From NCBI GenBank assembly GCA_017610205.1, contig JAFCCL010000014.1:1-22547 (forward strand): a stretch of DNA of 22,547 bases, read 5' to 3'. The DNA comes from Candidatus Iainarchaeum sp. (GTDB lineage: Archaea > Iainarchaeota > Iainarchaeia > Iainarchaeales > GCA-2688035). Each line of letters begins with the position of its first letter. The stretch's first letter is position 1. The notes beneath the pieces are model-generated. The model saw only the letters and a list, made by a program, of their open reading frames with translations, was not told the origin of the DNA and did no database searches. Positions 3,305-22,547 of the stretch are shown one piece after another. The position numbers and the translations under genes are program-made.

Positions 3305-3955
3305 TTGCCTATTAAAGCGATTGGATTTGTTGATGGAAATAATTTTTACCACAACACGAAGAAAAATGGATTGAACTACAAACAAGCAGACTTTTCTGAA
3401 ATGGTAAAATATGTTTGCAGTAAGAAAGATTAGGAGTATAAAGGATTTTATTATTACAATTCTATTCCAGACCAACGTGAAAATAAAATCACATACTTTA
3501 AACAACTTTCTTATTTTGACCAAGTAAAGAATATGGATAAAAATTTAGACACAATTATAAGGAAACTTCGATATGCTTCAGATAGGGAAATATTAAACGA
3601 ACTCACCAAACGCAAAGAAACGTTAGGCTCGTTGAATTTGTGCAAAGACTGTATGGTAAAAATCAAACCTTGTTGTTATGATTGTGTAATGAAAAAAAGC
3701 GCGAGAGAGAAAGGAATTGATGTTAAGATTGCAATTGAAATCGTACAAAAAGCTTTGGCTGATGAATATGACGCCTGTGTTTTAATTTCGGGAGATTCAG
3801 ATTTTGTTCCAGCATTACAATTGATTGAAGAACGTGGGAAGAAAGCATTTAGTTTATTTATGCGGTGTAGAGGGTATTCTTGGGAACTAAGAAATAACAT
3901 AGAGTTTCATGCAATAAAAAATAAAGATTTTACAAATTTCTTACCATCTGACTAA
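3305..3955 (+). pseudogene. NYN domain nuclease with Cys-rich insert, interrupted by an in-frame TAG at 3431-3433
   Basis: From TTG 3305: MPIKAIGFVDGNNFYH...CSKKD*EYKGFYYYNS..., continuing in frame into the 3533 ORF (CKDC...CCYDC, EKGIDVKIA, LISGDSDFVP). Confidence 0.8.
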
Positions 3956-4203: not shown

Positions 4204-7200
4204 ATGTTTTCGGAAAAACTTGGCGGAATTTATTCAGCGCTTGAAGAAAAGTATTATGCGGTTCTTGACTTTTTGGACGCAAAAGGCGTTCCTGTTTATG
4301 CCTACAATGATGCATTGGAGGAAAGGGGTTTGCCTGCTTTTCCCATAACAATTGCGTTGATGGTAATTTTAATTGCAGGAATTTACGGCATTGTTTTTGC
4401 AGGAACCGGATTAAACCCTGCAATTGAAATCAGCTTTGAAGACCAGTTTAATGAAAGCGTATCAGGGGTTGCAGTAACTGTAAAAGATTCTTTTGGAACG
4501 GTTTTGTTTGGGCCTGAAAAAATTACCAATGGCGAAACAATCAGACCGCAAAGAATTCCGATTGGAACAGAAATTGTAATTGTTTCCGAAAAGTTGGGAT
4601 TTGATGAATCGGAAAAAAGAATTACTGTTAAAAGAAATGAAATCAGCACAAGCATTCAAATGCAAAGGCAAATTAGTGCAATTGATTCAAAGGTTCAGCT
4701 TTTAGACCAGGCAACAGGAGACCCTGTAAGGGGAGCTTCTGTTTCACTTGAATGGCAGGGTTCAACAAAAAATGCTGTCAGCGATAATGAGGGAAAGGCA
4801 AGCTTTGCAGGTGTCCCTGAAAACACTGAAGTGTTTTTGACAGTGCTGGCAGACGGATACGAAACCCTTTCTGCAAGCTATTCATTTAAGGAAAATGAGT
4901 TGAAGGGAATAAGCCTTGTTGGAAACAGTGCAAGCTTTTTGGGAAATTCAAACATAGTTGTAAGCGTCTTTGACGAAACAGGGCAGCCTATTAGCGGTGC
5001 AAAAATAGTTGTAATGGACAGGGAAACCGACACCAGCATTGATGAAAGAACAATTGAGGGAAACGAAGCAATTTTTTCAATTGCCAGAGGTTCAAGCATA
5101 AGGCTTGTTGTTGAAAAGGACGGATTTTTAAGATATGATTCAATGGAATTTGACGAAGGCAGAACTTTGAGACAGGATGAAGAGCTCTGGCCGGTTACAC
5201 TGAATGTAGGCGGAACAAGACTTGCTGTTAGCATATTTGTCGGACAAAATCCGTTGAGTGACGCCATAATTCAATTGTTTGACGTCAATGGAAATTTTGT
5301 TGGCATGAAAACAACAGGATTTGGCGGAAGCGTTGAATTCAACGGGCTTGAACCAAAAGAATATTTTGCCACAGGATACAAACAGGGCTTTTTGCCAATG
5401 TGGAAAAAAATCAATGTTGCAGAAATTGAAAACACAAGCCTTTTCATTGAATCAGCCGACAATTCAAACAGTTCATACCTTGGAATTTCTGTTCTTGATT
5501 CATTTAAGTCAATGGCAAACAATGCAGATGTTACATTTAAAGAAAGAATTGAAGGCAGCGAATACCCGCTTGGAATTCCTTCAATTAAAACAGACATAAG
5601 CGGCTATGCAAGCATTGTTGCAAAAACCGGAACGATGGTTATTGTTGAAGCAAAAAAAGAAGGAGAAGAAGGCATTGGAGAAAAACTCATTGAAGCAAAC
5701 AAAGACAACCAGCTTATTATAGAACTTACAAAGCCGTTTGGAATTGTAAAACTTGAAGTGTTTGACGCTCAAGGAAATAAGGCAGCAGGACACATAGTAA
5801 TTGAAAGTGTTAGCGGAACGCTTTTGTTTGACGGAAACCTTTTTGATGGAAGCGTTTTCTTTGACAACGAAGGCAACACCGAAGCCGTTGTAAATATTGA
5901 AACCGATTCAGGCAAAACCTTTTCACAAAGAATAAATGTACAGGGACAAGAAACAGCAGTAATAAACCTTGGAGAAATTTCAACAAAAATTACGCCAACA
6001 ATAGAATTTGTCGGAATTTTTGACAGCGAAAATTTTCCAGTTGAAGGAATTGCAAAAGGAGAAGATTACTGGCTTGCATTTCAAAGCACCTGGCCAACCG
6101 GAGTTGAAAAAGGCGGAGTGCACGTAAGAATCGGAGCAGACGGAATTGCATTTGTGGATTCACAGGAAGAATGGGTAACAGGATTTGAAGCCACAACATC
6201 AAATTATTTTTACGGAAAAAGCTACCAGCCACTGCCGGCTCCAGGAAACGAAACAGCAGATATGCAAAACTCAGGAATTGCAGGACAGGAAAACAAGTTT
6301 GTAGAATTATACTTTGAAGAGCCAGAAAACACTGTTGCATTCAGGGTAAAGGTTTCATCAAATTACCTCATTTCAAAAGACAGCATTGAACTGCATTACA
6401 GAGCATGGACAGAAGCAGGCGGAAAAATATTCAGAGAACCAACTGACACAGAGCTTGGCGAAAAAATGTTTACAGATACAAAAACAGGACTTTATGCAAA
6501 CACAATTAATGAACAAATTCAGGTTTTTGCAGCAAAACCAGAATGCGAAAATGAATTATGCGGAGCCTACTTCTTTGTGCTTCCAAACGGACTCTACATT
6601 GACAAACAGGATTTCAAAGCAGTTACCGACGAACTTTACGCACTTGAAATTGACCTGAGCTCAAACAAGCCATTGAGCGTTACACTAAAACTTGACACAG
6701 ACAAAGCCTTGCCAAAACTACAATTCACAGGATACGACGTTGACGAATTTGTAGACCAGCAGGAAGGAGAATTAATGCCGCCTGAAACAGACCTTTCAGG
6801 ACAAGGATATCTTGAAGTTGGCGAAGTGAACTGGGAATTGCAGGAAAGCACAAACCCACTTGGATTCACCCAAGGAGGAGAAAGCACTTCGCTGACAATT
6901 AGCGCTTTGGGCGTAAGCCCTGAAAGGCCAAGAAAGGTAAGAGTATATTTTAAAGCAGTAGGGGAAGGCTCTGCTGAAATAAAAATGCAGGCAATTGGAG
7001 AAAGCGTTTTGGACGAAAGCTTTATTTTTGAAATTGAAAGAAACAAGCCATTGCTTGTAAGAATTACCCCAAGCAGTCCGCAAATAGGAGAAGCTTTTAC
7101 AGTAAAGGTTTTGGACGGAGAAGACGGAAGTGCAGTGCAGGAAGCTGTTGTGCAGGTAAAAGATTCAGCCGGCAAAATTGTTGCCTCAGTTATTGGAAAA

Positions 7201-10200
7201 GGAAGCACAAGACACGGATTAAGCGGAGAATATTATTTTAGAAACAGCCTTGACCCAGGCTTTTACACAATCCATACAACCGCGGCAGGATACAAAGAAG
7301 AACAAGCAGAACTTACTATTGCAAGAGACGGAATTCTGGAAGTAAAAAGCCCTCTAAAAATAGATGTTTCAAAAGACTCAGGAGAACAAACAATTTCGCT
7401 TTCAATAAGAAACACAGGAGAAGAACCTGTTACAGAACTTACATACGAAATAGAAAAAGGCGACGACTTTCCTGAAGAATTTTCAGTAAGCGTTACCATG
7501 CCGGCAGAAATAGGAAAAGGACAGGATGGAACAGCCACAGTAAGAGTGCTTGTTAATCTGGATGAAGACAGTGAAGAAAGCCTTTACGGCGAAGCAGACC
7601 TTGTTGTCAAAGGAATGGTTTCAGAAAATTACCCAACAAGCAATATTACAAAATTGCAGATAAATTACAACAAGCAGCTTGACGAAGGATGCCTTTACTT
7701 TGACATAGAGCATTTAATGATAAGGCTAATTGGCAGGGCAGGAAGCACAGGAACAGGCGAAATCGAAGTTGAAAACAGATGCGGTACAGCACTTGACCTT
7801 AGGGCAAGTTCGGAAGCAAAATACCAAGACCCGAATTTAACAGTAACCGTTCCAACACTCAGAATTGAAAAAGACGAAACTGTAAAAGTAACAGTAAGTG
7901 TTTCAAACAGAATTGAAAGAATGAACAGCCTTAACGAAAGACACGATTACACATTAAAGTTTGAATCAAGCCAGATTGCAAAAACAATTCCTGTAACAGT
8001 TGAACTTTCCAACCCAAGAACAAATTTAAGCTATCCTCCAAACATTGCACTCTGGATGGTAAGAAATGCACAGGAAGAACTTGCATATGCACAGGCTCCA
8101 ATGCAAATAATTAACAACAGCCAAATTCCGGTTACAGGATTTAGAGCAGTTGCAAGACCGGAACAATACAATGCCGGCATAACCTTTGACATAAGGCCTG
8201 AAGAGAGATATGGAATAAACCTTTTCCCAGGCCAGCCAATGGCGCCTCAAAGATTTGTTTACGCAGAAACAAAGCAAACAGAAGCATTTCAAAAACCAGG
8301 ACAGGGATATGTTCAGCTATCAGGAAATGTTGAAGGAAGAATACAGCCAAATTTGGGGCTGATAAGGCTAAGCGCAAATTATTCAGGAATAAAATGCCTA
8401 AAAGCAAGCTTTGTTGACAGCTCTGAATTCAGCAGTACTGAAGCAGGAAAAGGAACGCTTGAAAGGGCAATAAAGATAAGGAACGAGTGCGGCGAACCAG
8501 TAAGAATTACCGGCATAACAAAACCTGAAAAAATAAGCGGAAACACATTTGCAATAAGCCCGGGAATAACACTCAACCCAGGAGTTGAAGGCAACTTCAA
8601 GCTAATTCTTTTAAAAAGCCAGGAAACAAAAACAACCGGAGCCATTAAAATGGTGGGGCTTTTAGTAAACCAGGGAAAGTACATTGAATCAAACGAATTA
8701 AGCGTTACACTAAAACTTGGAGAGCTTGCAGCAACAGCAGAAGGAAAGCACACTGCGGAAATATCAATAAAGAAATGCGATTCAGACAGCTCAGAAAGAA
8801 TTGCATTCCCTGTTCTTTCAAGCGACTGCACTGCAGGATACTGTGATGCAGAACAGCTTGCAACATTCCTTACAAACAAAGCAGAAACACTTGTAAAAAC
8901 AGCAAAAGAAAAAGCAAGACGTGCAGACTTCAGTGCCGAAGGCTTTGGAAACTGCTCACAGCCAGAAAAAGAATACTGCAGCTTTGTCGACATGGGAATT
9001 ATTAGCGAAACATTCCCTGTTTTCCTACAGCTTGACAACATGACAAAAGAAGTAATGTTCAAAGCACTGAGAGAAAGCAAGGAAGAAATTAAAGATTACG
9101 ATGTTCTGCAAGGAACAAAAAGCATTGAAAACATTGGAGGAGTTGGCTTTGACTTTGGCAACATAAACCTTGGCGGAAACTTTAAAGGATGCGGAAAATA
9201 TTACGTTGAGCTTATAGGTGCTGCAAGAATTCACAACGGAGAAATTATAGTAAGCAAAAACACAAAAGACTTCTGGATTTCAATAAATGTTATACAGGAA
9301 AGGGTAACAACAGACGAATGCCTGCACAATATTGAAAACGCAGCAAACTTTTTGCCGGTTGACGACGGCTTTACAATTAAAGAGCACTACTTTGCATGGC
9401 CTGGCTTTGTACAGGCAGGAACAGAATTTGGAGACCTGGGAAAAATATTTGCACAAGAGCTTTTTGGAGATGCAGAAGGAAGATACAGAGACAACATTTC
9501 AAGCGGAAGCAACAGAATTGAAATCGTAAAAGGAGATGTAGGAGAAGGGCTTTTGAAGGTAAGAATTTCAAAAAGCGGAGACCCGGAAGTACCAAAAACA
9601 ATTTATGCACATGTTCCGGCAGGATACTCGGAAGACAACAAAATTGTGGAAGACGAAATAGCAAAGGCATTCAAGTCATTCCAAAAAAGATCCTTTTCAA
9701 ACAAAGACTGCATTGGAGAAGACGATTCAGGACAGTACATTGTAATGAAAAGCTATTCAGACCCTGACAAGCTCTACGGCAAGCTTGAAATTAAGGGAGG
9801 AAACAGCCTAAAAATAAGCACTGGTGAAAGATGCACTGACTTCAATGTCACAAGCAAAACAAGCGAAAGCGTGATGTTTGAAACAGACTTTTTAACAAAG
9901 GGAAAAAACCCAAGCAAAAACGGAATAGAACATGTTGCAATAAAGAACACCAAGGGCGAAATTCTTTTGGAGGAAAAGGCAAACAAAAACAAAAAAGAAT
10001 TACAACAACTTAGACTTGTAAAAGACGACAAAGGAACTTACACTGCACAGGCACAATTCTGCATAAAAGGCAACAGCATGTTTACACAGGCAGCAGAAAA
10101 TATTAAGGACATTTCAATAACAGCAAAAAGCATAATTGGCACAACAGAACTTGACAGAAAAACAACACCGCACAAAATTGCAATTGAAGCATGCGGAATG

Positions 10201-12681
10201 CATCCGTATGACCTTATTCCAAAAATGGGAGAGGTTAAAGTAGGCAAAGGCGAGGGTGAAAAAGAAAAACTTGTTGCATACGTCACAATAAACTGGAGTG
10301 TTGAAGACGGCGACCCAAACGTTATTAACATAACCACAATACAAAGAGGAATTGCCGCAGAAGCAGCAATGGACGAAGCAAGAAAAATGTACGGTTCAGG
10401 AACAGACCTTCCGGTTGCAGAACAACCGGCATACATAAGGGAAACTTCGATGAACAAGCTTTTGGGAATTTGGACAGGTTATTTTCCGGCATGCATGATA
10501 ACTTCCATAATATCCAATATAGTTATGAAGATGGGCGGTGGTCTCTTTGGTATTCCGTTAGATGTTACATTAGACTGTTTTCTCCCAGCAAGTTGGGCTT
10601 CAAGGGATGCTGTAAAAGATATTGGAGGAGGAGGAAAAAGTATTGTTGAAAGCATTGAAAACTTTGTAAAAGACTACCTTCCTTTTGGCGAAAGTTTTGT
10701 TGATAGCACTGGAAATTCGACCCTTGTTCCAGAAAATAAGCAAGCAGCAGAAGCTCTTGCAAAAAACGAATTCAGGGAAGATATAGTTCCGGCAGCAGTT
10801 CTTGGAACAACATTGGACAGCTTAAAGCTTGGAGTAAGAAATGGAAACCAAATAATTGGAGAAATTTCCACAAGCCTTGCAAGCAAAAATATTGGAGAAA
10901 CAGTATTTAGAGAATTAAAAAGTGGTTCGCTTAAGGATTTGACAACAGCTGATCCAGCACTTGTCAAAGAAATGCAAGATGTTTATATAAAAGAACTTAA
11001 AAAAAGCATGATGGCAAGAAAAGTAGGAAGAACAAAAACAATTAATGACATAGCACTTGAATCAAGCCAGGAAGCATATGCCAAAATGGGTAATGAAATG
11101 GGCGAGAAGATAATAAAAAGTGCAAATAATCTTGGAACAGGAGCAGCAGGATCGTTAAAGGAGATAGAAACCAAAATTGCCAGCAGCTTCATGGACGAAG
11201 ATGCTGTTGTAAAGGCAAGCAAATTTGGAATAAGCCCTGAGTTAGGTTCAGAAACTATACCAAATACCCCTAGGTATAAGGTTGTTGTAAAAAATAGAAT
11301 TACAAAATACGAAAATGGCGTAAAAGATATGTTTGAAAATAATATCAAAAAGTCTCTAAAAGACCAGTTTGGAACAGATGCTGCTGGAAATAATATCTAT
11401 GATAAATTTTATGAGATAACACCAGCTACTCCAGAAAGCACAAAATTTACAAAAATAATTAATGACGCAATAGACGAAGGCAAAAAAGGTATTATAGCAA
11501 AACAAGACGGCGCACTTACCCCAATAAAAATCGGTGGCGGGCAATGGAATGCAGAAAAAATTACCGATTGGGAATTTAACGCAAAGATTACTACAAATCT
11601 TGATGACGCTGCAAGAGAAACAGTTGCAAGTGTGAGAAAAGAAGGTGCTGAGTTCATTGCCGAAAATGTTGTTGGCAAAAAAGTAGGGCAAGAGATTGCT
11701 GAAAAACTTTTTACAGGCGATGCAAGGCGCGGAGTTACTGGAATTGCCGATGAGGTTATTGATACTAGAAAGGGAGTAGGAGGACTTACAAAAATTAGGA
11801 CATTCTTTACAGGGTCTAACTTGAGAAGATTTATCAATTTGGCTACAACCTGGAATCTTGTAAAAAACCTTGCAAAAGGCGTTGCAAGCGGCGTTGCTTC
11901 AAACTATATGGGTTACCAAGGCTGGAAAGTATACTGGGGCATATTTGGAGAGGATGAAGTTAAGGGAGCCATAACAAGCAGTGTTGGGCCAAGGCCAGGG
12001 GAAGACATTGACGGAGACGGCATAATTGATGATGTAGATGGTTTGCCTGCAAGGCAAGAGCTTGAAAGAGGCCAGACTTACAAGATTATCATTACTGCTA
12101 CAGATTCTGGTAGAAAACATGAGTTTGTAAAGCTTGAGAAAAAGGAAGACTTTGAAAAAATGGACAAGGAGATAGCGGAAGGAAAAGCAGAGCTTTGGGA
12201 AGAACCAGGTTGCAAGAACTTCAAGGACAAAGGAGTTGGAAGATATCTTGGAAACCTTGATCCTGTTCCATCAAAAACTGTAAAGCCAGAGCATGTAACT
12301 GCTTACTACAATTACAATTCAGAGTTTGCAGACGCAAAAAGAGGAGATGCTTCAAGCGTTGGAGACGACCTTTACGAAGACGAACTGGCAGCAGCATTGT
12401 TTGTTGACCCAGGCAGAATTGAGGAATGCACAATTTCAAAAACATGGTATCTTCAAAGGCAGGGCGAAACAAAGGAAGATGCAAAACTAAGGGCTGTTGA
12501 AAGCATTAACTGCGCTGCAGGCGAGCTTAGGCAAGCAAAATTAAGAGCCGGAGCAGGAGCAAGCTTCAAAAATGTTGCAGCAGAACTTGTAAAAGGCCAG
12601 GAGGGTGCTGCAAACTATTCAGCTCTTGCCTTAGAATTCCAGGAAATTTGGGAAAGGTTCAGAATCATAAAAGCAAACTAG
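4204..12681 (+). CDS. Giant (2825 aa) membrane-anchored surface protein with carboxypeptidase-regulatory/Ig-like beta repeats
   Basis: N-terminal TM (FPITIALMVILIAGIYGIVF) and repeated 'V.D..G.P+.GA.V...T...G...F......GY' beta-sandwich units. A Cys-rich middle is followed by a helical region bounded by hydrophobic segments and a DxDGDG Ca-loop at about 12001-12040. Confidence 0.9.
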   Translation: MFSEKLGGIYSALEEKYYAVLDFLDAKGVPVYAYNDALEERGLPAFPITIALMVILIAGIYGIVFAGTGLNPAIEISFEDQFNESVSGVAVTVKDSFGTVLFGPEKITNGETIRPQRIPIGTEIVIVSEKLGFDESEKRITVKRNEISTSIQMQRQISAIDSKVQLLDQATGDPVRGASVSLEWQGSTKNAVSDNEGKASFAGVPENTEVFLTVLADGYETLSASYSFKENELKGISLVGNSASFLGNSNIVVSVFDETGQPISGAKIVVMDRETDTSIDERTIEGNEAIFSIARGSSIRLVVEKDGFLRYDSMEFDEGRTLRQDEELWPVTLNVGGTRLAVSIFVGQNPLSDAIIQLFDVNGNFVGMKTTGFGGSVEFNGLEPKEYFATGYKQGFLPMWKKINVAEIENTSLFIESADNSNSSYLGISVLDSFKSMANNADVTFKERIEGSEYPLGIPSIKTDISGYASIVAKTGTMVIVEAKKEGEEGIGEKLIEANKDNQLIIELTKPFGIVKLEVFDAQGNKAAGHIVIESVSGTLLFDGNLFDGSVFFDNEGNTEAVVNIETDSGKTFSQRINVQGQETAVINLGEISTKITPTIEFVGIFDSENFPVEGIAKGEDYWLAFQSTWPTGVEKGGVHVRIGADGIAFVDSQEEWVTGFEATTSNYFYGKSYQPLPAPGNETADMQNSGIAGQENKFVELYFEEPENTVAFRVKVSSNYLISKDSIELHYRAWTEAGGKIFREPTDTELGEKMFTDTKTGLYANTINEQIQVFAAKPECENELCGAYFFVLPNGLYIDKQDFKAVTDELYALEIDLSSNKPLSVTLKLDTDKALPKLQFTGYDVDEFVDQQEGELMPPETDLSGQGYLEVGEVNWELQESTNPLGFTQGGESTSLTISALGVSPERPRKVRVYFKAVGEGSAEIKMQAIGESVLDESFIFEIERNKPLLVRITPSSPQIGEAFTVKVLDGEDGSAVQEAVVQVKDSAGKIVASVIGKGSTRHGLSGEYYFRNSLDPGFYTIHTTAAGYKEEQAELTIARDGILEVKSPLKIDVSKDSGEQTISLSIRNTGEEPVTELTYEIEKGDDFPEEFSVSVTMPAEIGKGQDGTATVRVLVNLDEDSEESLYGEADLVVKGMVSENYPTSNITKLQINYNKQLDEGCLYFDIEHLMIRLIGRAGSTGTGEIEVENRCGTALDLRASSEAKYQDPNLTVTVPTLRIEKDETVKVTVSVSNRIERMNSLNERHDYTLKFESSQIAKTIPVTVELSNPRTNLSYPPNIALWMVRNAQEELAYAQAPMQIINNSQIPVTGFRAVARPEQYNAGITFDIRPEERYGINLFPGQPMAPQRFVYAETKQTEAFQKPGQGYVQLSGNVEGRIQPNLGLIRLSANYSGIKCLKASFVDSSEFSSTEAGKGTLERAIKIRNECGEPVRITGITKPEKISGNTFAISPGITLNPGVEGNFKLILLKSQETKTTGAIKMVGLLVNQGKYIESNELSVTLKLGELAATAEGKHTAEISIKKCDSDSSERIAFPVLSSDCTAGYCDAEQLATFLTNKAETLVKTAKEKARRADFSAEGFGNCSQPEKEYCSFVDMGIISETFPVFLQLDNMTKEVMFKALRESKEEIKDYDVLQGTKSIENIGGVGFDFGNINLGGNFKGCGKYYVELIGAARIHNGEIIVSKNTKDFWISINVIQERVTTDECLHNIENAANFLPVDDGFTIKEHYFAWPGFVQAGTEFGDLGKIFAQELFGDAEGRYRDNISSGSNRIEIVKGDVGEGLLKVRISKSGDPEVPKTIYAHVPAGYSEDNKIVEDEIAKAFKSFQKRSFSNKDCIGEDDSGQYIVMKSYSDPDKLYGKLEIKGGNSLKISTGERCTDFNVTSKTSESVMFETDFLTKGKNPSKNGIEHVAIKNTKGEILLEEKANKNKKELQQLRLVKDDKGTYTAQAQFCIKGNSMFTQAAENIKDISITAKSIIGTTELDRKTTPHKIAIEACGMHPYDLIPKMGEVKVGKGEGEKEKLVAYVTINWSVEDGDPNVINITTIQRGIAAEAAMDEARKMYGSGTDLPVAEQPAYIRETSMNKLLGIWTGYFPACMITSIISNIVMKMGGGLFGIPLDVTLDCFLPASWASRDAVKDIGGGGKSIVESIENFVKDYLPFGESFVDSTGNSTLVPENKQAAEALAKNEFREDIVPAAVLGTTLDSLKLGVRNGNQIIGEISTSLASKNIGETVFRELKSGSLKDLTTADPALVKEMQDVYIKELKKSMMARKVGRTKTINDIALESSQEAYAKMGNEMGEKIIKSANNLGTGAAGSLKEIETKIASSFMDEDAVVKASKFGISPELGSETIPNTPRYKVVVKNRITKYENGVKDMFENNIKKSLKDQFGTDAAGNNIYDKFYEITPATPESTKFTKIINDAIDEGKKGIIAKQDGALTPIKIGGGQWNAEKITDWEFNAKITTNLDDAARETVASVRKEGAEFIAENVVGKKVGQEIAEKLFTGDARRGVTGIADEVIDTRKGVGGLTKIRTFFTGSNLRRFINLATTWNLVKNLAKGVASGVASNYMGYQGWKVYWGIFGEDEVKGAITSSVGPRPGEDIDGDGIIDDVDGLPARQELERGQTYKIIITATDSGRKHEFVKLEKKEDFEKMDKEIAEGKAELWEEPGCKNFKDKGVGRYLGNLDPVPSKTVKPEHVTAYYNYNSEFADAKRGDASSVGDDLYEDELAAALFVDPGRIEECTISKTWYLQRQGETKEDAKLRAVESINCAAGELRQAKLRAGAGASFKNVAAELVKGQEGAANYSALALEFQEIWERFRIIKAN

Positions 12682-13365: not shown

Positions 13366-13734
13366 TTGCTGCTGGATACTTATGCCTGGGTTGAATTCTT
13401 TAACGGAACAGAAAAAGGCAAAAAAGTAAAAGCAATTCTTAAAAAAGAAAACTGCTTCACCAGTGCAATTTGCCTGGCAGAATTAAGCGAATGGATTGAA
13501 AGAGAAAACATTAACAGAAAGGAAAAAATGCACGAAATAAAAACCCTTTCTTCAATCCTAAAATTAGACCAGGAAACACTTGAACTGGCAGGCATACTAA
13601 AACTGCAAAAAAGAAAAAAAGAAAAAGGATTTGGGTTAATTGACGCAATAATCCTGGCAACGGCAAAAACTTACAAACTCAAAATAGTAACAGGAGACAG
13701 GCACTTCAAAGAAGAAAACACAATAATGCTGTAA
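13366..13734 (+). CDS. vapC: PIN domain toxin
   Basis: Acidic PIN motifs LLDTYAWVE, CLAEL, GLIDAIILATA and VTGDRHF. Confidence 0.9.
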   Translation: MLLDTYAWVEFFNGTEKGKKVKAILKKENCFTSAICLAELSEWIERENINRKEKMHEIKTLSSILKLDQETLELAGILKLQKRKKEKGFGLIDAIILATAKTYKLKIVTGDRHFKEENTIML

Positions 13735-15628: not shown

Positions 15629-16018
15629 TTAATTCTTTGTTTTCTTTTCTTTCCATTCTTTTTTTGCCTTCTTTTTTGCTTCTCTGGCTTCTTCAATGGT
15701 TGATGCCTTTTCGTTTCCGAATACATGCGGGTTTCTTTTCTCAAGCTTGTATTTCAATAACTCTAAAACTTCTTTAGTGGTGAAAAGCCCTTCGTTTTCT
15801 GCTTGCTGGCAAAAATCAAACCAGCTCCAGAGAACATCTCCCAACTCTTCTTTGAGTTCTTCCCAATCCTCTTTGTCTACTGCCATTCTTGCTTCTAGGG
15901 CTTCATCAACCAAATCTTTTTTGTAAAAATTGACAGTGTTGCACTTTGAGTCAGGACATTCTTTTTTGATTTTATTAAGAAGATTTTTTATTTCCAAGAA
16001 GAGTTTTTCGTTAATCAT
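15629..16018 (-). CDS. mazG: MazG-family nucleotide pyrophosphohydrolase
   Basis: ECP..., LVDEALE, KEELGDVLW and KLEKRNPHVFG motifs. Confidence 0.85.
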   Translation of the reverse strand: MINEKLFLEIKNLLNKIKKECPDSKCNTVNFYKKDLVDEALEARMAVDKEDWEELKEELGDVLWSWFDFCQQAENEGLFTTKEVLELLKYKLEKRNPHVFGNEKASTIEEAREAKKKAKKEWKEKKTKN

Positions 16019-16097
16019 TTTTTATCCTTTCGTGTTCCTTTGCAGTTGTCTTTATTTCTTTAATTATTTCTTTTGAAATTAAAATAAGTTTCTGTTT

Positions 16098-16709
16098 TCA
16101 TTTTTTTAAGTAATTTAGAGTCAGTTTTGAATATAAATCAGTATATTTCTTTAGGTGACTTGTTTCTACAAATTCATTGGTGGTGTGTGCCATTAATTGA
16201 TTTCCAGGCCCAAGAACAACAATGTTTGGCTCGTTTTCAAATATTTCTGCTTCAAGGTAAAATGATGCGTCTGTTCCAAATATTGATTGTCTTGGTTTAA
16301 TGTTTGTTTCAAGAATTTTTTCCATTTCTTCGAGTGCAAATTCTGTGAAACTGCTTTTTGTTGAATCAAATGGCCCGTATATTCTTTTTCCAATACTTTC
16401 GAAAAGATTTGTTCCAATAAATTTGTAGCCTGCTTTTGAAAGGTCCTCTTCAGAAACTAGTGATTTTTCCAGGTTTTTTATTTCTTTAATGGTTTCTTTT
16501 AGTGCTTGTTCTGCAAATTCTTTTTTTTCTTCTGGCAAAATTGTTTCAAGTTGTCTTTCGAGAGGCATTCCAACAAGGCTTTCAAAAAAAAATCGGGTTA
16601 TTTTTTTACAACCAAGTTTGCCAAGCGTGTAATTTATTGTTTCAAAAATACCTTGGTTGCTATCAGCCAGTGTTCCGTCAAAATCAAAAATAAGCAATTT
16701 TGTACTCAT
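16098..16709 (-). pseudogene. Chimeric ORF: HAD-hydrolase N-terminus fused to M20 peptidase C-terminus
   Basis: IFDFDGTLADS (HAD motif I plus cap start) with no HAD motifs II-IV. The C-terminus has FGTDASF...VVLGPGN...AHTTNEFV (M20/ArgE-DapE). The likely start is ATG 16709. Confidence 0.7.
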
Positions 16710-16719
16710 ACTATTCACA

Positions 16720-16773
16720 TTACCACTCATAACTTTCTGTCACACACATTATTTGCTGTCCTACTTTTCCCAC
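16720..16773 (-). CDS. 17-aa peptide MGKVGQQIMCVTESYEW
   Basis: GTG start 4 nt after AGGTGA (the same SD type as vapB), with GGAGG further upstream. It fills the gap between the wHTH and HAD genes and is not in the ORF track. Confidence 0.55.
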   Translation of the reverse strand: MGKVGQQIMCVTESYEW

Positions 16774-16795
16774 TTAATCACCTAAAATACCTCCT

Positions 16796-17179
16796 TCATT
16801 TTGATTCATATACTATTGGTTGAATTTTTTTCAACTGAATGGTTGAATTTGGTGAAAAAACTCTTGTTCTGCTTTGCAAAAATCCTTCAACTGGTTGAGT
16901 GTATGCTTCTTCAAGGTTTGTTCCAAATTGCTTGATTTCCCTAATCCACTTAAGGTTTAAACAGTATTTTCTTTCGTGCTTGGCCAGGACTTTGTTTTCA
17001 ACCAGTTTCTTTAATGCTTTGTGCACTGCCTGCTGTGAAACGCTCAAAGAATAGTCTCTTACAACAGCAAAATAAATTTCTTTTAAAGAAAGAGGCCATT
17101 CATTTCCCAAAACATTGACAATCGCATCCTTTACTTTCCCGCCACCATTTACACAACCTGGCGAAGCTACTAATAACAA
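16796..17179 (-). CDS. Winged helix DNA-binding protein
   Basis: KDAIVNVLGNEWPLSLKEIY...SVSQQAVHKALKKLVENKVL...YCLN wHTH pattern. Confidence 0.8.
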   Translation of the reverse strand: MLLVASPGCVNGGGKVKDAIVNVLGNEWPLSLKEIYFAVVRDYSLSVSQQAVHKALKKLVENKVLAKHERKYCLNLKWIREIKQFGTNLEEAYTQPVEGFLQSRTRVFSPNSTIQLKKIQPIVYESK

Positions 17180-17195
17180 AACACATTACTCCCAA

Positions 17196-17280
17196 AAACT
17201 TTGATTGAACACAAGTGCAATCCCAGGCATTTGACCAAACAGGATTACACAAGAGTTCTTCGGCAATGCAAGCACTACCG
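17196..17280 (-). ncRNA. Structured leader upstream of the minus-strand operon
   Basis: Minus strand: CGGUAGUG[CUUG]CAUUGCCG hairpin, then a GUGUAAUCCU/GGGAUUGCAC stem extended by GAAC/GUUC. Several G-U pairs are valid only on the minus strand. Confidence 0.5.
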
Positions 17281-17315
17281 CTGTTATTAGTTTCTTTTTT
17301 TTTGCTTATTATTAA

Positions 17316-17398
17316 TTTTTAGCTAAAAAGGATAACCCTATTATAGTATTTTTATAGCAATGGTTGCTATTTTTATTCTTTTTTCATAACTAAGTTAT
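17316..17398. promoter_or_regulatory. Palindromes in the divergent promoter region
   Basis: TTTTTAGCTAAAAA (17316-17329), ATAGCAA-tgg-TTGCTAT (17354-17370) and ATAACT-a-AGTTAT (17386-17398). Confidence 0.45.
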
Positions 17399-17399
17399 T

Positions 17400-18671
17400 A
17401 TGGAATTGAGGGGTCTTTCGCTTTTGGTAAGCAATCAAAAAAACCATTTTACTAATTTAATTCATAAAAAGCAGGAAAACAATAGGCGCATTAATGTTTA
17501 TTTTTCTGTTAGTTACTCACATCCAAATTACTATTATCTCGCCCAACTTTTTTATCTTTCGCAGTTGGCGTTAAAAAATAATGTTTTTCTTTATCTTTGT
17601 TTAGGCGATACTGTTCTTTTTCGGAAAAAGAGAAGCCATTTTTCAGAACCCTTCAAGGCATATAACAAGGATAAAATGGATTCTTTGATTGAGGAAGTCC
17701 GTTCAGTTGTTGAATCTTTTGGTGTTGATCCAGAAAGAATTTTTGTTTATAAGGCATCCAATAACTGGCAGAAGCTATTGAAACTCGAGGACGAAGAAGT
17801 TTTTTCTTTTTTTAAAGGGCTTAATACCATTCCATCCAAAACCCAGAACATTGGTGAGAAAATAAGTGACATTTTTTATTTGCCAAAAAACACTAAGTAT
17901 GAACTTGGATATGTTGTAAACAAATATCTTGATTTGTTTGTATCAAGCCATTTGCATCAGCTTTTTCCAGAGGATATTGAAAACAAGATTGACATTTTTG
18001 TCGCGGGTAATTATAGCGGACAACTTATTTCAAATTTGCAGGGAATTCTTGTTGATGAAGAATTAATTTCAGAAAGCAGACCAATTATAACTGCTTTTCC
18101 TTTACTCCCTTGCTTTGGACAAAGTTCATCAATAGACCAAACTTTTAATGTGCCTCATTGGGATATGCAATTGGAAGAAATCTATGATGTGATTGAAAAA
18201 TATAATCTTCCAAGAAAACATATTGAAACAATATTAAGGAATTTGATTGCTAAAACAAAAAGAAAAATGATTTTTTCAACAAACGGAAAATCGGAAGAAG
18301 TTGATTTGTCTGAAATTTCTTTAGCTAAATTCCCAGTAAAAAAACAGCGTTTCCTACTGGCACATGCTTTGTTTGATTTTCTTCAGGAAATAAAATCAAA
18401 AAACAATATTAAGAATTGCAGCAATTATTTGGATTTAAAAAATCTGAATGAAATATATGAGCTTAGCAAGGCTTTCAAAAGCCCTCTTACAATAGATATT
18501 CTCACTTTAGCAGATAAAGGACATTCAGTTTCAGAAATTGCAAGAAAACTAAATAAGCATACTTCAAACATATCTACTGCAATAAGCACTCTTAAACAAA
18601 AGGGCCTTGTGCGAATAAATGGAAACGGTAAACTAGAAAAAGCAGTTAAAGTCATAAAAATTAATTTGTGA
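17400..18671 (+). CDS. Degenerate class Ic aminoacyl-tRNA-synthetase-like (TyrRS/TrpRS fold) domain fused to a C-terminal ArsR-like wHTH
   Basis: The C-terminal HTH is clear (SVSEIARKLNKHTSNISTAISTLKQKGLV). The N-terminal ~330 aa follow the order of TyrRS elements by eye: NVYFSV, FLYLCLGD, SFGVDPERIFVYKAS, IDIFVAG, FPLLPCFG, WDMQLEEIYDVI. HIGH and KMSKS are absent. Confidence 0.6.
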   Translation: MELRGLSLLVSNQKNHFTNLIHKKQENNRRINVYFSVSYSHPNYYYLAQLFYLSQLALKNNVFLYLCLGDTVLFRKKRSHFSEPFKAYNKDKMDSLIEEVRSVVESFGVDPERIFVYKASNNWQKLLKLEDEEVFSFFKGLNTIPSKTQNIGEKISDIFYLPKNTKYELGYVVNKYLDLFVSSHLHQLFPEDIENKIDIFVAGNYSGQLISNLQGILVDEELISESRPIITAFPLLPCFGQSSSIDQTFNVPHWDMQLEEIYDVIEKYNLPRKHIETILRNLIAKTKRKMIFSTNGKSEEVDLSEISLAKFPVKKQRFLLAHALFDFLQEIKSKNNIKNCSNYLDLKNLNEIYELSKAFKSPLTIDILTLADKGHSVSEIARKLNKHTSNISTAISTLKQKGLVRINGNGKLEKAVKVIKINL

Positions 18672-18677
18672 TACAGC

Positions 18678-19478
18678 ATGGATAACTACGACCTTGTTAC
18701 TATAGGCCATGTCGGCTATGACTTTCCTGAAACTAAACAGGGGGAAAAAAAGATTCTCGGGGGTGCAGCATACTTTGCGGCCAAAGCAGCTTCTCTATTC
18801 TCAAAAAAATTGGGGATTGTAAGCAGAATTGGTTCAGATTTTGATGTAAGGAACCTGCAAGAACTTGGTATTGACCTTTCCGGAATAAAAGTGATTAATG
18901 GCGGAAAAACATTTAGATGGTATGCAAAGTACGATGAAGAATTTAATGTTATTAGTTCTAGAGGCGAGCTTAATGTAGGCGAAAACATATCCCCTGAAGA
19001 CATTCCCGAAAAGCTATTAAACACACAATTTTTTCATGTAGCAAGTATGCCACCACAAATGCAGAAAAAAATTGTTTCATATATTAAAGAAAAGAATTGT
19101 CAGGCAACAATAAGCATTGATACCATAGAAGCTTTTCTTCTTAAATGGCCAGAAGAAACAAACAAAGTCTTTTCAACTGCAGACATAGTTTTCGTTAATG
19201 AAAAGGAATTCCAACTACTTAATAGTAATATAAGGCAAAACAAACAGATAGTCAAAAAAATGGGTTCAAATGGAGCAGAGGCACTTTTCAATGGGAACAA
19301 ATTCACAGTACCCGCACCAAAAGTCGACAAAGTTTTTGACACTACTGGCGCCGGCGATACTCTTGCAGGAGTTTTTCTCACCCTTCTTGCAAAAGGTGAA
19401 ACAACAAAAAAAGCATTAAAGGAGGCGGTTAAAATTGCTTCAAAATCAGTTACAGCTTTTGGAATCGGACACATTTAA
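18678..19478 (+). CDS. PfkB/ribokinase-family kinase (possibly nucleoside kinase)
   Basis: LGGAAYFAA, VFVNEKE, KMGSNGA and DTTGAGDT signatures. Confidence 0.9.
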   Translation: MDNYDLVTIGHVGYDFPETKQGEKKILGGAAYFAAKAASLFSKKLGIVSRIGSDFDVRNLQELGIDLSGIKVINGGKTFRWYAKYDEEFNVISSRGELNVGENISPEDIPEKLLNTQFFHVASMPPQMQKKIVSYIKEKNCQATISIDTIEAFLLKWPEETNKVFSTADIVFVNEKEFQLLNSNIRQNKQIVKKMGSNGAEALFNGNKFTVPAPKVDKVFDTTGAGDTLAGVFLTLLAKGETTKKALKEAVKIASKSVTAFGIGHI

Positions 19479-20313
19479 GGAGCTAACGGCTCCGACAAAA
19501 GTTTGCTGGAATCTAACTAGTCGCTGCAATCTTCAATGCAAGTTTTGTTATGGCCCTCAAAATATTAAACAAGAATTAAATACAATACAGGTAAAAAAAG
19601 TTCTTGACAAGCTTAAAAAAGCAGGCGTTCAAAGAATTGTTCTAAGTGGCGGAGAGCCTTTGTTGAGAAAAGACATTCATAAAATAATAATACACGCATA
19701 TTCACTCGGCCTTACTATTTCCTTAGCAACAAATGGACTTCTCTTAAACGAAATGTTCCTTGAACAAACAAAGAATTATCTGTCAATGATAGAAATTACA
19801 GTCGACGGACCCGACAACAAAATAGAGGAATCTATGAGGGGAAACAAGAAAATATTCCACCAAATTACCAAAAATCTTGAGATGGTAAAAAGCAAGGGCA
19901 TTCCAATTAAAATCAACACAATGGTCTGCAAAAAGAATTTTCTCTTAATAGAACAAATAGGCCTAATTGTGAAAAAATATAATCCCAAATGTTGGAAAAT
20001 ATTTCAATTCATTCCAAAAAACAGAGGCAGACTCTATAAAGAAGAATTTGAGATAACAAACCAAGAATTTGAACAATTAAAACAAAAAATTACAAACAAG
20101 TTTTCAGAACTAGATATTATCTGGGCATCAAAAGATTTTTTTAATGGCTCATATTTTGATATTTATCCAAATGGAAACGTTATGATTCCAGAAATAGAAA
20201 AGGATAATCAAATTGGAAACATTTTAACACAAAGTGTTGAAGAACTCTGGAACAATACTTTAGTAGACAAAAAAAAACACATACAGCAAGCAGCAGTTCC
20301 ATATGAAAGTTAA
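19435..20313 (+). CDS. Radical SAM enzyme, viperin-like
   Basis: CNLQCKFC, SGGEPLL, ATNG, IKINTMV, WKIFQF, FEITNQEF and SYFDIYPNG motifs. GGAGG at 19421 precedes the TTG start, which overlaps the pfkB end. Confidence 0.85.
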   Translation: MLQNQLQLLESDTFKELTAPTKVCWNLTSRCNLQCKFCYGPQNIKQELNTIQVKKVLDKLKKAGVQRIVLSGGEPLLRKDIHKIIIHAYSLGLTISLATNGLLLNEMFLEQTKNYLSMIEITVDGPDNKIEESMRGNKKIFHQITKNLEMVKSKGIPIKINTMVCKKNFLLIEQIGLIVKKYNPKCWKIFQFIPKNRGRLYKEEFEITNQEFEQLKQKITNKFSELDIIWASKDFFNGSYFDIYPNGNVMIPEIEKDNQIGNILTQSVEELWNNTLVDKKKHIQQAAVPYES

Positions 20314-21407: not shown

Positions 21408-22547
21408 ATGGACCTTAAAAAGGCAGCCTTAATACTACTAATATTACTAATATTTTCCTGCTCTGTTTACTCAGAAGACCTAACACCACAAACAAAAAAA
21501 TACATCGTCTTGTTCTCTGAAAACGCAGACAAAACAGTAGCAGAAAACTATGGCACAATAGAATACGAATTTACAACAATAAACGCCATACTAATTAACC
21601 TAACAGAAAAACAAGCCCAAACACTAGCCCAAGAACCAGGCATTAAAAGCATTGAAGAAGACCAAGAAATACAAATAGGAACAGCTGCCAGCACGCAAAC
21701 AAAAAAAGAAGACGAAATTACAATAATGAGCGAAGGAACTCAAATAACAAGCCACACCACAGGAAGCCAATGGAACCTTGAAGAAACAGGAATAAACGCA
21801 GAAAACGCCTGGAACAACTTCAATGTAGACGGTCAAGGAGTAACAATAGCAATCATTGACTCAGGAGTCAACTACAACCTCCCAGACCTAAACGGAGCAA
21901 AATACCTAGGCGGATACGACTACTGCGTAACAGGAACAGGAACAAGGTGCAGCGGAGAAGACACCAACCCAATGGACGAATACGGCCACGGAACAGAAAT
22001 GGCAACAGCAATGCTTGGAGAAGGAACAACAATATCAGGAATAGCACCAAACACACAATACTACGCAGTAAAAATCACAAACAGCGACAGCAGAAGCAGT
22101 ACAAGCACTCTACTCAAAGCACTTGACTGGGTAGCAGCACAAGGAGGAGCAGACATAACATATATGGGAGTATATACATATATTTCTACAAGCAACGGCA
22201 TATTTATTCACACACATTACGAAGATGGCTGGCTCTTTGTTTCACCAGCATATGATTCTATAGCAATATGTCCTGCTGCATATACATATGTTATCGGAGC
22301 TGGCGCCCATTCACGTTATGAACCACAGAGTGTAATGAGCACTACAGGCTATTACGCCGAAGTCCTTGCTCCAGGTGAAGAAGTTCCTGTTTTGGCTTTG
22401 GATGGCAGCATAGTAAATGCTGCCGATTCAGTTGGTGTTGCCGCAGCCCAGGTTGCAGGCGCACTTGCTTTGATGATTGATTACAACAGACAACAGGATT
22501 TGGGTTATGACAATACTGCTTTATGGGACGTTTTGAATTACAGTGCA
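21408..22547 (+). CDS. Secreted S8 subtilase-like protein with I9-like propeptide, catalytic Ser absent (partial, runs off window)
   Basis: 380 open codons, not in the ORF track. Signal peptide, then KYIVLF...IKSIEEDQ propeptide, GVTIAIIDSG (Asp), YGHGT (His), GIAP and LAPG. DSVGVAAAQVAG replaces SGTSMAAPHVAG. Confidence 0.85.
   Translation, partial: MDLKKAALILLILLIFSCSVYSEDLTPQTKKYIVLFSENADKTVAENYGTIEYEFTTINAILINLTEKQAQTLAQEPGIKSIEEDQEIQIGTAASTQTKKEDEITIMSEGTQITSHTTGSQWNLEETGINAENAWNNFNVDGQGVTIAIIDSGVNYNLPDLNGAKYLGGYDYCVTGTGTRCSGEDTNPMDEYGHGTEMATAMLGEGTTISGIAPNTQYYAVKITNSDSRSSTSTLLKALDWVAAQGGADITYMGVYTYISTSNGIFIHTHYEDGWLFVSPAYDSIAICPAAYTYVIGAGAHSRYEPQSVMSTTGYYAEVLAPGEEVPVLALDGSIVNAADSVGVAAAQVAGALALMIDYNRQQDLGYDNTALWDVLNYSA

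Follow-up and report, generated by a model that had tools for sequence, protein, structure and literature searches.

A divergent viperin-family radical SAM enzyme, a PfkB kinase and a tyrosyl-tRNA synthetase-like, putatively DNA-binding protein: a possible regulated nucleotide-modification module in a Candidatus Iainarchaeum genome

What might a compact, divergently transcribed gene cluster with a viperin-like radical S-adenosylmethionine (SAM) enzyme be doing in the genome of a DPANN archaeon, and how many of its genes belong together? The question is raised by positions 15629-20313 of the window, by which we mean the entire 22,547-bp contig (C12; JAFCCL010000014.1) of a Candidatus Iainarchaeum sp. 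genome (1.37 Mb, 92% complete). Humans, bacteria and archaea have few immune enzymes in common; viperins are among these, and pairing with a nucleotide kinase is regarded as a conserved hallmark of theirs. To our knowledge, almost nothing is known of how prokaryotic viperins are regulated. The initial annotation of this stretch described six open reading frames (ORFs) in two tight divergent units and regarded all of them, together with a short peptide, as a partly deleted pathway for a modified nucleoside or nucleoside-peptide. The ORFs and their arrangement are indeed as described there: on the plus strand only 6 nt separate the 423-aa gene (family F1) from the kinase gene, which in turn shares 44 nt with the radical SAM gene. 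The earlier finding is thus real but overextended, and the true unit is smaller than proposed. Our best reading is a four-gene conserved core, in which the gene for F3, a 127-aa putative winged helix-turn-helix (HTH) protein, diverges from the row F1, PfkB and radical SAM. We have moderate confidence that this core constitutes a regulated viperin-type module making a modified nucleotide, in which the PfkB kinase replaces the usual P-loop nucleoside monophosphate (NMP) kinase and a pseudo-tyrosyl-tRNA synthetase (TyrRS) fused to a winged HTH is the sensor; the confidence is no higher because we infer the product and the antiviral role, and with them the substrate and the regulatory logic. The features of the cluster are as follows:

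15629..16018, minus strand: small MazG-type nucleoside triphosphate (NTP) pyrophosphohydrolase (PF03819), 129 aa
16098..16730, minus strand: apparent chimeric remnant ORF, 210 aa, with the N-terminal third of a HAD phosphatase and the C-terminal end of an M20 peptidase
16796..17179, minus strand: F3, small putative winged-HTH protein, 127 aa, conserved divergent partner of F1
17180..17399, unstranded: divergent control region, 220 bp, with palindromic blocks just before the F1 start codon
17400..18671, plus strand: regulator F1, 423 aa, with a predicted degenerate TyrRS-like body (about residues 1-340) and a C-terminal ArsR-like winged HTH (about residues 345-420)
18678..19478, plus strand: PfkB (ribokinase-fold) kinase, 266 aa, of a small island-specific subfamily
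19435..20313, plus strand: viperin-like radical SAM enzyme, 292 aa, TTG start, without a SPASM domain

The description of the radical SAM protein as viperin-like is well founded, as its best matches are viperin hidden Markov models (HMMs) and viperin structures. Beyond the general family match (PF04055, 86.8 bits), its best NCBIfam model is viperin_w_prok (NF038283), with a score of 143.9 bits that does not reach the curated cut-off of 180 bits and an alignment that runs from end to end (residues 21-284 against profile positions 2-278 of 281). Two PADLOC models of prokaryotic viperins (pVips), which carry no curated cut-off, also match it, at 3.9e-47 (PDLC02904) and 1.4e-46. Mouse viperin is its top sequence match in the PDB (9.4e-18), and the best full-length plasmid match is a protein of Methanomethylovorans hollandica that PGAP names viperin (31.5% identity, 90% query coverage). 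The residues C31, C35, C38, G72, G73 and P75, which include the CxxxCxxC and GGE motifs, are invariant in eight sequences. An AlphaFold2 (AF2) model built from 8 input sequences (pLDDT 90.4) contains the partial (β-α)6 barrel closed by a viperin-type C-terminal extension, and the protein has no match to PF13186. The top Foldseek match of this model is mouse viperin with bound CTP (6q2p; TM-score 0.82/0.82, rmsd 2.4 Å, 280 columns), with the C-terminal extension included in the alignment; most of the top ranks are viperins (mouse, Trichoderma, Nematostella), with SPASM enzymes among them at lower TM-scores.

The PDB sequence alignment also covers residues assigned to the pocket of mouse viperin, although it yields no assignable equivalent of the base-binding Asn in the β8 loop. 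Mouse K120 and R194, which along with R245 we take to be residues of the NTP pocket, pair with R67 and R135 of the window's enzyme. Likewise, mouse S124, K220, N222 and K247, which the accessible part of a docking study places in the RSAD2 pocket (PMC11970327), pair with S71, K159, N161 and K188. In a quick maximum-likelihood tree of 39 radical SAM proteins, which includes only three PGAP-named viperins as references, a clade of seven members containing the window's enzyme (P0001-P0007) falls in a 15-row group (SH-aLRT 84) with these three references, P0008, a fusion protein of locus L028 (see below), an E. coli enzyme encoded beside a deoxynucleoside kinase, and two enzymes of the phylum. This group is separate from the SPASM-type and MoaA-like enzymes; within it the clade is the sister of the subgroup with the named viperins and does not lie inside that subgroup. 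Given the viperin affinities in HMM, structure and tree on the one hand, and the score below the cut-off on the other, the protein is best labelled a divergent member of the viperin family and should not be taken for a certified pVip.

Enzymes of this kind are rare among the relatives of the archaeon. None of the 215 genomes of the phylum that we surveyed passes the curated viperin cut-off, and only two reach an E-value of 1e-30 to the viperin model, the window's gene being the best of all. The six other genomes of the genus contain no radical SAM match at E<=1e-25, and a profile search of genome contigs with a five-sequence alignment recovered only an unrelated Blautia radical SAM protein. 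The claim that such a locus is unexpected in a DPANN genome is fair in degree only. DPANN archaea carry few defence systems, with a mean of 2.6 per genome, and reports of viperins are 9 times as frequent for Asgard archaea as for other archaeal groups, according to the available part of a published study (PMC11291487); the locus is therefore uncommon, not paradoxical. The stretch 15629-20313 has a GC content of 33.2%, against 37.6 +/- 1.8% for 4.7-kb windows of the genome, and just 2.1% of 1273 such windows are this low. Low GC content and sporadic distribution fit an accessory character of the radical SAM locus.

The kinase was rightly assigned to the PfkB family: it matches PF00294 with 82.2 bits (cut-off 25.8), and the alignment to its top PDB match, 3kd6 (7.3e-30), includes both the GG ('ILGGAAYF') and the GAGD ('DTTGAGDT') motifs. 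It belongs to a small subfamily of ten homologues at 44-79% identity, as opposed to the housekeeping type at 29-37%; the latter is present in 75 of the 215 genomes of the phylum and is represented in the same genome by a paralogue on C16 (35% identity; 33% by tblastn). The best NCBIfam matches of the window's kinase are ribose-1-phosphate and nucleoside kinases, all far under their cut-offs (the top one, a ribose-1-phosphate kinase, at 72.6 versus 330 bits). P-loop NMP kinases adjoin 5% of archaeal viperin genes (10.1101/2023.09.13.557418), and the accessible main text of that study, taken apart from its supplements, makes no mention of ribokinase, DPANN or MazG. A literature search for a link between viperin and PfkB yielded nothing relevant, with the limit that supplements of viperin papers may list PfkB neighbours or this clade. 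Within the literature searched, supplements aside, this kinase type has not previously been linked to viperins.

The F1 family is the most original element of the locus. The earlier characterization of the 423-aa protein as an aminoacyl-tRNA synthetase (aaRS)-like protein with an HTH is borne out by a structural model that combines a TyrRS-like body with a C-terminal HTH. Pfam, NCBIfam and PADLOC scans return only weak HTH matches, in the last 90 residues. The top Foldseek matches of the AF2 model (15 homologues, pLDDT 85.2) are all TyrRS or tryptophanyl-tRNA synthetase (TrpRS), the best with an E-value of 9.8e-10 and the top 50 better than 1e-6. In a VIA comparison, residues 1-336 of the model are matched to the A. 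fulgidus TyrRS (2cyb) with a Z-score of 20.3 and 285 of 319 residues aligned; the match spans both the Rossmann catalytic domain and the helical anticodon-binding domain, with 10-16% sequence identity to aaRSs in structural alignments. Sequence comparisons do not recover this relationship: PF00579 is absent from F1, against 183.6 and 98.1 bits for the normal TyrRS and TrpRS that the genome retains on C17; the F1 profile found no aaRS in the PDB; and hhalign alignments to the genome's own TyrRS (Prob 0.06%) and to 27 TyrRSs of the order (Prob 2.3%) are both non-significant. As modelled, the link between F1 and TyrRS exists at the fold level only. The non-significant alignment to the 27 TyrRSs is consistent with the fold match. 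It sets YLAQ opposite HIAQ, leaves KMSKS without a counterpart, and places the invariant D70 opposite the Asp of 'LVADWHA' and Y171...D178 (Y171 invariant, D178 in 13 of 15 rows) opposite the Tyr...Asp of 'YPCMQAAD'. The TyrRS positions matched by D70, Y171 and D178 are presumably those that hold the amino acid. F1 appears to lack the HIGH and KMSKS motifs, and the model suggests a TyrRS without catalytic activity that may have kept the ability to bind an amino-acid-like ligand.

The C-terminal region of F1 is closest to the ArsR family, with CzrA/ArsR-family chains retrieved from the PDB by a 15-sequence F1 profile at 7.6e-5 to 2.6e-4. It also matches the Csa3/CasR-type HTH; the NCBIfam model HTH_metalloreg scores 24.6 versus 55 bits, and all Pfam HTH models are below their cut-offs. 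F1 is a small family: of 1.84 billion cluster representatives, 123 match at E<=1e-10, nearly all of them 380-430 aa long, and ESM Atlas gave no usable match for it. One F1 homologue, from the same taxonomic family, bears the source label 'Candidatus Diapherotrites archaeon', in keeping with the DPANN assignment made earlier. Our literature search uncovered no account of a DNA-binding domain joined to a TyrRS-like body, and in the literature searched F1 thus represents a previously undescribed use of the aaRS fold.

Across from F1 lies F3, whose designation as a winged-HTH protein holds only as a weak resemblance: the family profile retrieves AdcR (E 0.028), PF0095 (0.041) and Fur (0.27) from the PDB, and there is no Pfam match. 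The same genome also contains an F3 paralogue with 45% identity, transcribed divergently from a 306-aa HTH-like ORF and the gene of a 592-aa radical SAM protein (G000:C14:67743-70888). Between F1 and F3, the 220-bp control region is 66% identical to that of a metagenomic relative, L082, versus 50% identity at the third codon positions of F1 in the same two loci. Upstream of F1 it contains a 9-nt inverted repeat at 17214-17250 (GTGCAATCC...GGATTACAC), which is present in another locus (L025) with one compensatory change and degenerate in L082. The repeat is unremarkable when folded as RNA (z -1.4); DNA operators are therefore the more likely reading of the repeats in this region, with 17214-17250 as a candidate operator.

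To investigate what these genes are associated with elsewhere, we used contextual information from the 215 genomes of the phylum, in which F1 matches occur in 30, with near-full-length versions in 16 loci of 15 genomes; all 16 loci were taken and their ORFs clustered with those of the window (17 loci). An F3 family member lies next to or near F1 in 9 of the 17, and also in L082. Radical SAM genes of several kinds are found within a few genes of F1, likewise in 9 of the 17. In three loci F1 is divergent from a MoaA-like radical SAM gene of about 500 codons (L035:296-3684, L037:998-4374 and L036:6443-9263), followed in two of the three by a CYTH-domain protein. These MoaA-like proteins score 153-191 bits to archaeal MoaA, below the cut-off, and MoaC gave no match in the three genomes (86-93% complete); therefore the MoaA-like enzyme beside F1 probably does not serve molybdenum cofactor synthesis and may instead belong to another NTP-modifying module. 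L028 encodes (10548-12653), two genes away from F1 and F3, a 701-aa fusion protein composed of a viperin-like radical SAM domain (65 bits, profile positions 4-265 of 281) and an HMG-CoA-reductase-like domain (245.5 bits); GcpE in this locus is convergent with F1. Further loci contain SPASM-type enzymes in a larger conserved cluster, and other F1 neighbours include GcpE, polyprenyl synthases, an HD protein, methyltransferases and a TrmB-like regulator. Because its neighbours and the kinds of radical SAM enzyme vary in this manner among the 17 loci, the F1 and F3 pair looks like a regulatory cassette serving varied cargo, and these neighbours point to further uncharacterised NTP-modifying radical SAM enzymes.

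One could go further and regard F1 as a new archaeal class of sensor-regulator, in which the pseudo-TyrRS would bind an amino acid, an aminoacyl-adenylate-like ligand or a tRNA-like RNA and switch on interchangeable nucleotide-modifying effectors, namely viperin-like enzymes with PfkB, MoaA-like radical SAM enzymes with CYTH proteins, and HD hydrolases. We regard this joint proposal as decidedly unlikely; were it true, genome-reduced DPANN archaea would have an inducible arsenal of antiviral nucleotide analogues.

The particular combination found in the window also appears to recur. In G159 the closest genomic F1 (56% identity) is followed by PfkB (61%) and then by the end of the contig. In a large collection of proteins, the nearest homologues of the window's radical SAM enzyme (78%), F1 (74%) and PfkB (79%) each come from a Logan contig of 18,828 bp. 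The members of a second set (pVip P0003, PfkB P0132 and F1 P0316) each come from a 6,456-bp contig, and pairs of F1 and PfkB have common contig sizes of 3,339 bp and 2,990 bp. As close homologues of all three proteins are thus found on contigs of identical size (18,828 and 6,456 bp), the trio probably travels together. A search of metagenome contigs with the F1 sequence alone found nothing; with an alignment (A4) it recovered one contig of 2,413 bp, the JGI contig L082, which has F1 at 70% identity and a divergent F3. This is the only close relative with visible DNA downstream of F3, and there the gene after F3 encodes a secreted protein and is neither HAD nor MazG.

In the mechanism that we propose for the four-gene module, the radical SAM enzyme would bind an NTP in its viperin-type pocket and dehydrate it to an analogue of the 3'-deoxy-3',4'-didehydro (ddh) type, which would poison viral polymerases. 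PfkB would phosphorylate a salvaged nucleoside or re-phosphorylate the ddh-nucleoside, feeding the substrate pool and thereby taking the role that the P-loop kinase CMPK2 has for canonical viperins. Expression of the operon might be governed by F1 and F3, acting at the conserved 220-bp region between their genes, with the TyrRS-like body of F1 as the ligand sensor. If this is true, the partnership of viperin and kinase has been re-invented with an unrelated kinase fold in a nucleoside-salvaging lineage, and the locus provides an example of a viperin under dedicated transcriptional control.

A number of observations weigh against this proposal. As to the radical SAM enzyme, the curated viperin cut-off is missed; the runner-up NCBIfam model, NirJ2, follows with 124 bits, gained from the core region alone; mouse R245 is paired with a cysteine (C186); and the connection of the clade to the named viperins has an SH-aLRT support of just 84 and three references. 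As to the kinase, the viperin partners described in the accessible text of 10.1101/2023.09.13.557418 are P-loop NMP kinases, and no substrate-specific NCBIfam kinase model comes near its cut-off for PfkB. As to the context, nine other viperin-like loci of the phylum have neither PfkB nor F1 beside them, the linkage of the trio on metagenomic contigs is deduced from identical contig sizes, and a scan of the six proteins found no known defence gene besides the pVip match. Furthermore, since F1 occurs beside GcpE, polyprenyl synthase, HD and methyltransferase genes, its presence does not imply defence.

These points lead to the main rival, a non-immune metabolic role, in which the viperin-fold enzyme and PfkB would supply the cell itself, by synthesis or salvage, with a modified sugar or nucleotide for a cofactor, lipid or surface glycan, and a metabolite-sensing regulator would act as the switch. 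It would be in line with the isoprenoid-type genes near F1 and F3 relatives (GcpE, two polyprenyl synthases and the fusion of radical SAM and HMG-CoA-reductase-like domains), with the arrangement of the own-genome F3 paralogue, divergent from an HTH and 592-aa radical SAM pair, with the sub-cut-off viperin score and with a location among genes of secreted or surface type. We nevertheless consider it unlikely, though a contender to be taken seriously: the best HMM, sequence, structure and tree affinities of the radical SAM enzyme are all with viperins, the sporadic distribution and low GC content fit an accessory gene, and the genome already has a housekeeping PfkB.

The left arm of the cluster bears on whether all six genes act together. 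The MazG assignment is secure (PF03819, 63.1 versus 22 bits; profile positions 4-74 of 74). MazG matches occur in 24 of the 215 genomes, a single genome having as many as 4 copies, and the closest copies mostly adjoin genes for GNAT acetyltransferases. A 1.2-Mb genome (G062) has four copies, on C27, C16, C20 and C36, with 76%, 71%, 65% and 37% identity to the window's protein, respectively; in this genome a decarboxylase and a class II aaRS lie between the MazG and winged-HTH genes. Two of these copies, on C20 and C16, are within a few kb of radical SAM genes, and the one on C16 adjoins two of them. MazG is most likely an unrelated neighbour and not a member of the operon system; in favour of a functional link are this proximity in G062 and an E. 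coli plasmid trio of radical SAM, kinase and NudI genes, described below.

Next to MazG, the 210-aa ORF does match both of the families named at the outset, each in fragmentary form (HAD_2 positions 1-75 of 178 and Peptidase_M20 positions 125-204 of 206). Over residues 4-76 it has 70% identity to a complete 214-aa HAD protein on C18 of the same genome, which sits in a housekeeping context; the similarity ends there, and of an M20 peptidase just the last ~80 residues are present. To judge from these alignments the ORF is dead debris of two genes. The proposed 17-aa peptide, a GTG-start ORF at 16720-16773 on the minus strand, is rejected as a gene; it runs, in a different frame, into the start of the next ORF, and its spacer is carried by no relative.

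That all six genes and the 17-aa peptide form one modified nucleoside(-peptide) pathway, in a partly deleted copy, thus appears highly improbable. The genes are adjacent in one low-GC stretch, MazG is found near radical SAM genes in G062 (C20 and C16), and a pyrophosphatase partner is not absurd given that the E. coli plasmid couples a viperin-like radical SAM enzyme to a nucleoside kinase and NudI. However, the HAD/M20 ORF is without most of both folds, its HAD part being a truncated duplicate, a secreted-protein gene follows the winged-HTH gene in L082, a decarboxylase and a class II aaRS intervene between MazG and the winged-HTH gene in G062, MazG is multi-copy and usually GNAT-linked, and the 17-aa ORF is unsupported. 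Likewise we found nothing in support of a nucleoside-peptide product.

As the HAD/M20 ORF is a probable remnant, the diagnosis of partial deletion is right for that ORF alone. The core genes do not differ in length from their closest homologues (radical SAM 292 aa, PfkB 266 aa, F1 423/424 aa), which bears on a further alternative, that the module is a decaying, non-functional remnant of a horizontally acquired island. A clear gene remnant adjoining the core, the atypical GC content and the TTG start of the radical SAM gene could all be read in this way. Yet the three core ORFs are uninterrupted and of homologue length, the catalytic motifs (CxxxCxxC, GGE and GG/GAGD) are intact, and conservation is higher in the control region than at third codon positions. 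We accordingly give decay of the module very little weight, and retain the regulated viperin-type module as the preferred reading.

The remainder of the window contributes the following features:

1064-1678 and 3533-3955: two NYN-domain nucleases
4204-12681: giant 2825-aa ORF with CarboxypepD_reg domains
13366-13734: PIN-domain (VapC-like) protein, with paralogues on C9 and C3
20441-21334: 297-aa ORF
21408-22547: S8 subtilase with an I9 propeptide, following the 297-aa ORF and interrupted by the contig end

The cluster was previously placed among surface-protein genes, and this holds for part of the surroundings. The S8 subtilase fits, as do the N-terminal ~40-80 residues of the 297-aa ORF, which have about 20 paralogous matches on 12 other contigs of the genome and look like a large family with a common pilin-like leader; neither the 297-aa ORF nor the 560-aa ORF on the other flank has a Pfam match. 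A relative of the 297-aa ORF with 54% identity lies ~3 kb from a MazG copy in G072. An Rfam search of the window returned nothing and no tRNA genes were found in it; PHROGs gave matches only to generic radical SAM, kinase and unnamed families, none of which indicates a virus origin.

Comparison with known systems brings out what the module shares with them and where it departs. Like viperin (RSAD2) with CMPK2 and like the pVips, the window encodes a viperin-fold radical SAM enzyme of about 290 aa with a C-terminal extension and no SPASM domain, several residues assigned to the mouse pocket are paired with identical ones in the alignment, and a kinase gene lies in the same transcription unit. 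It is unlike the pVips in that its enzyme scores below the cut-off, in having two dedicated putative DNA-binding proteins, and in its host phylum, where none of the 215 genomes reaches that cut-off. The kinase differs as well, as it has a PfkB/ribokinase fold where the pVip partners in the accessible text of 10.1101/2023.09.13.557418 are P-loop NMP kinases. A precedent for a nucleoside kinase partner is found in Anabaena, where a deoxynucleoside kinase adjoins viperin. An uncharacterised cluster on the E. coli plasmid NZ_CP027324.1 (L146, 116684-118694), adjoining an IS600-family (IS3-like) transposase gene, encodes in a row a radical SAM enzyme, a deoxynucleoside kinase and NudI; the first of these is viperin-like (27.8% identity and 85% coverage to the window's enzyme). 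This cluster combines the same three chemistries as pVip, PfkB and MazG, using other kinase and pyrophosphatase folds, and its genes are co-directional and contiguous, whereas MazG of the window, unlike NudI, lies on the opposite arm beyond a gene remnant.

On the regulatory side, the closest parallels are enzyme-derived transcription factors. BirA, which we take to be a class II aaRS-like biotin ligase with a winged HTH, and NadR, presumably likewise an enzyme-derived regulator, are of this type. So is RbkR of archaea, going by the accessible part of its description (PMC5397151). F1 resembles all three in the apparent fusion of a ligand-binding enzyme fold to a winged HTH, which in those proteins brings transcription under small-molecule control, and is unlike them in its predicted class I TyrRS fold with an anticodon-binding helical domain and in its C-terminal HTH. 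From TyrRS itself it differs in the apparent loss of HIGH and KMSKS, while with the archaeal/eukaryotic-type TyrRS the modelled body has the whole-enzyme fold in common, over the same 285 of 319 residues of 2cyb (Z 20.3).

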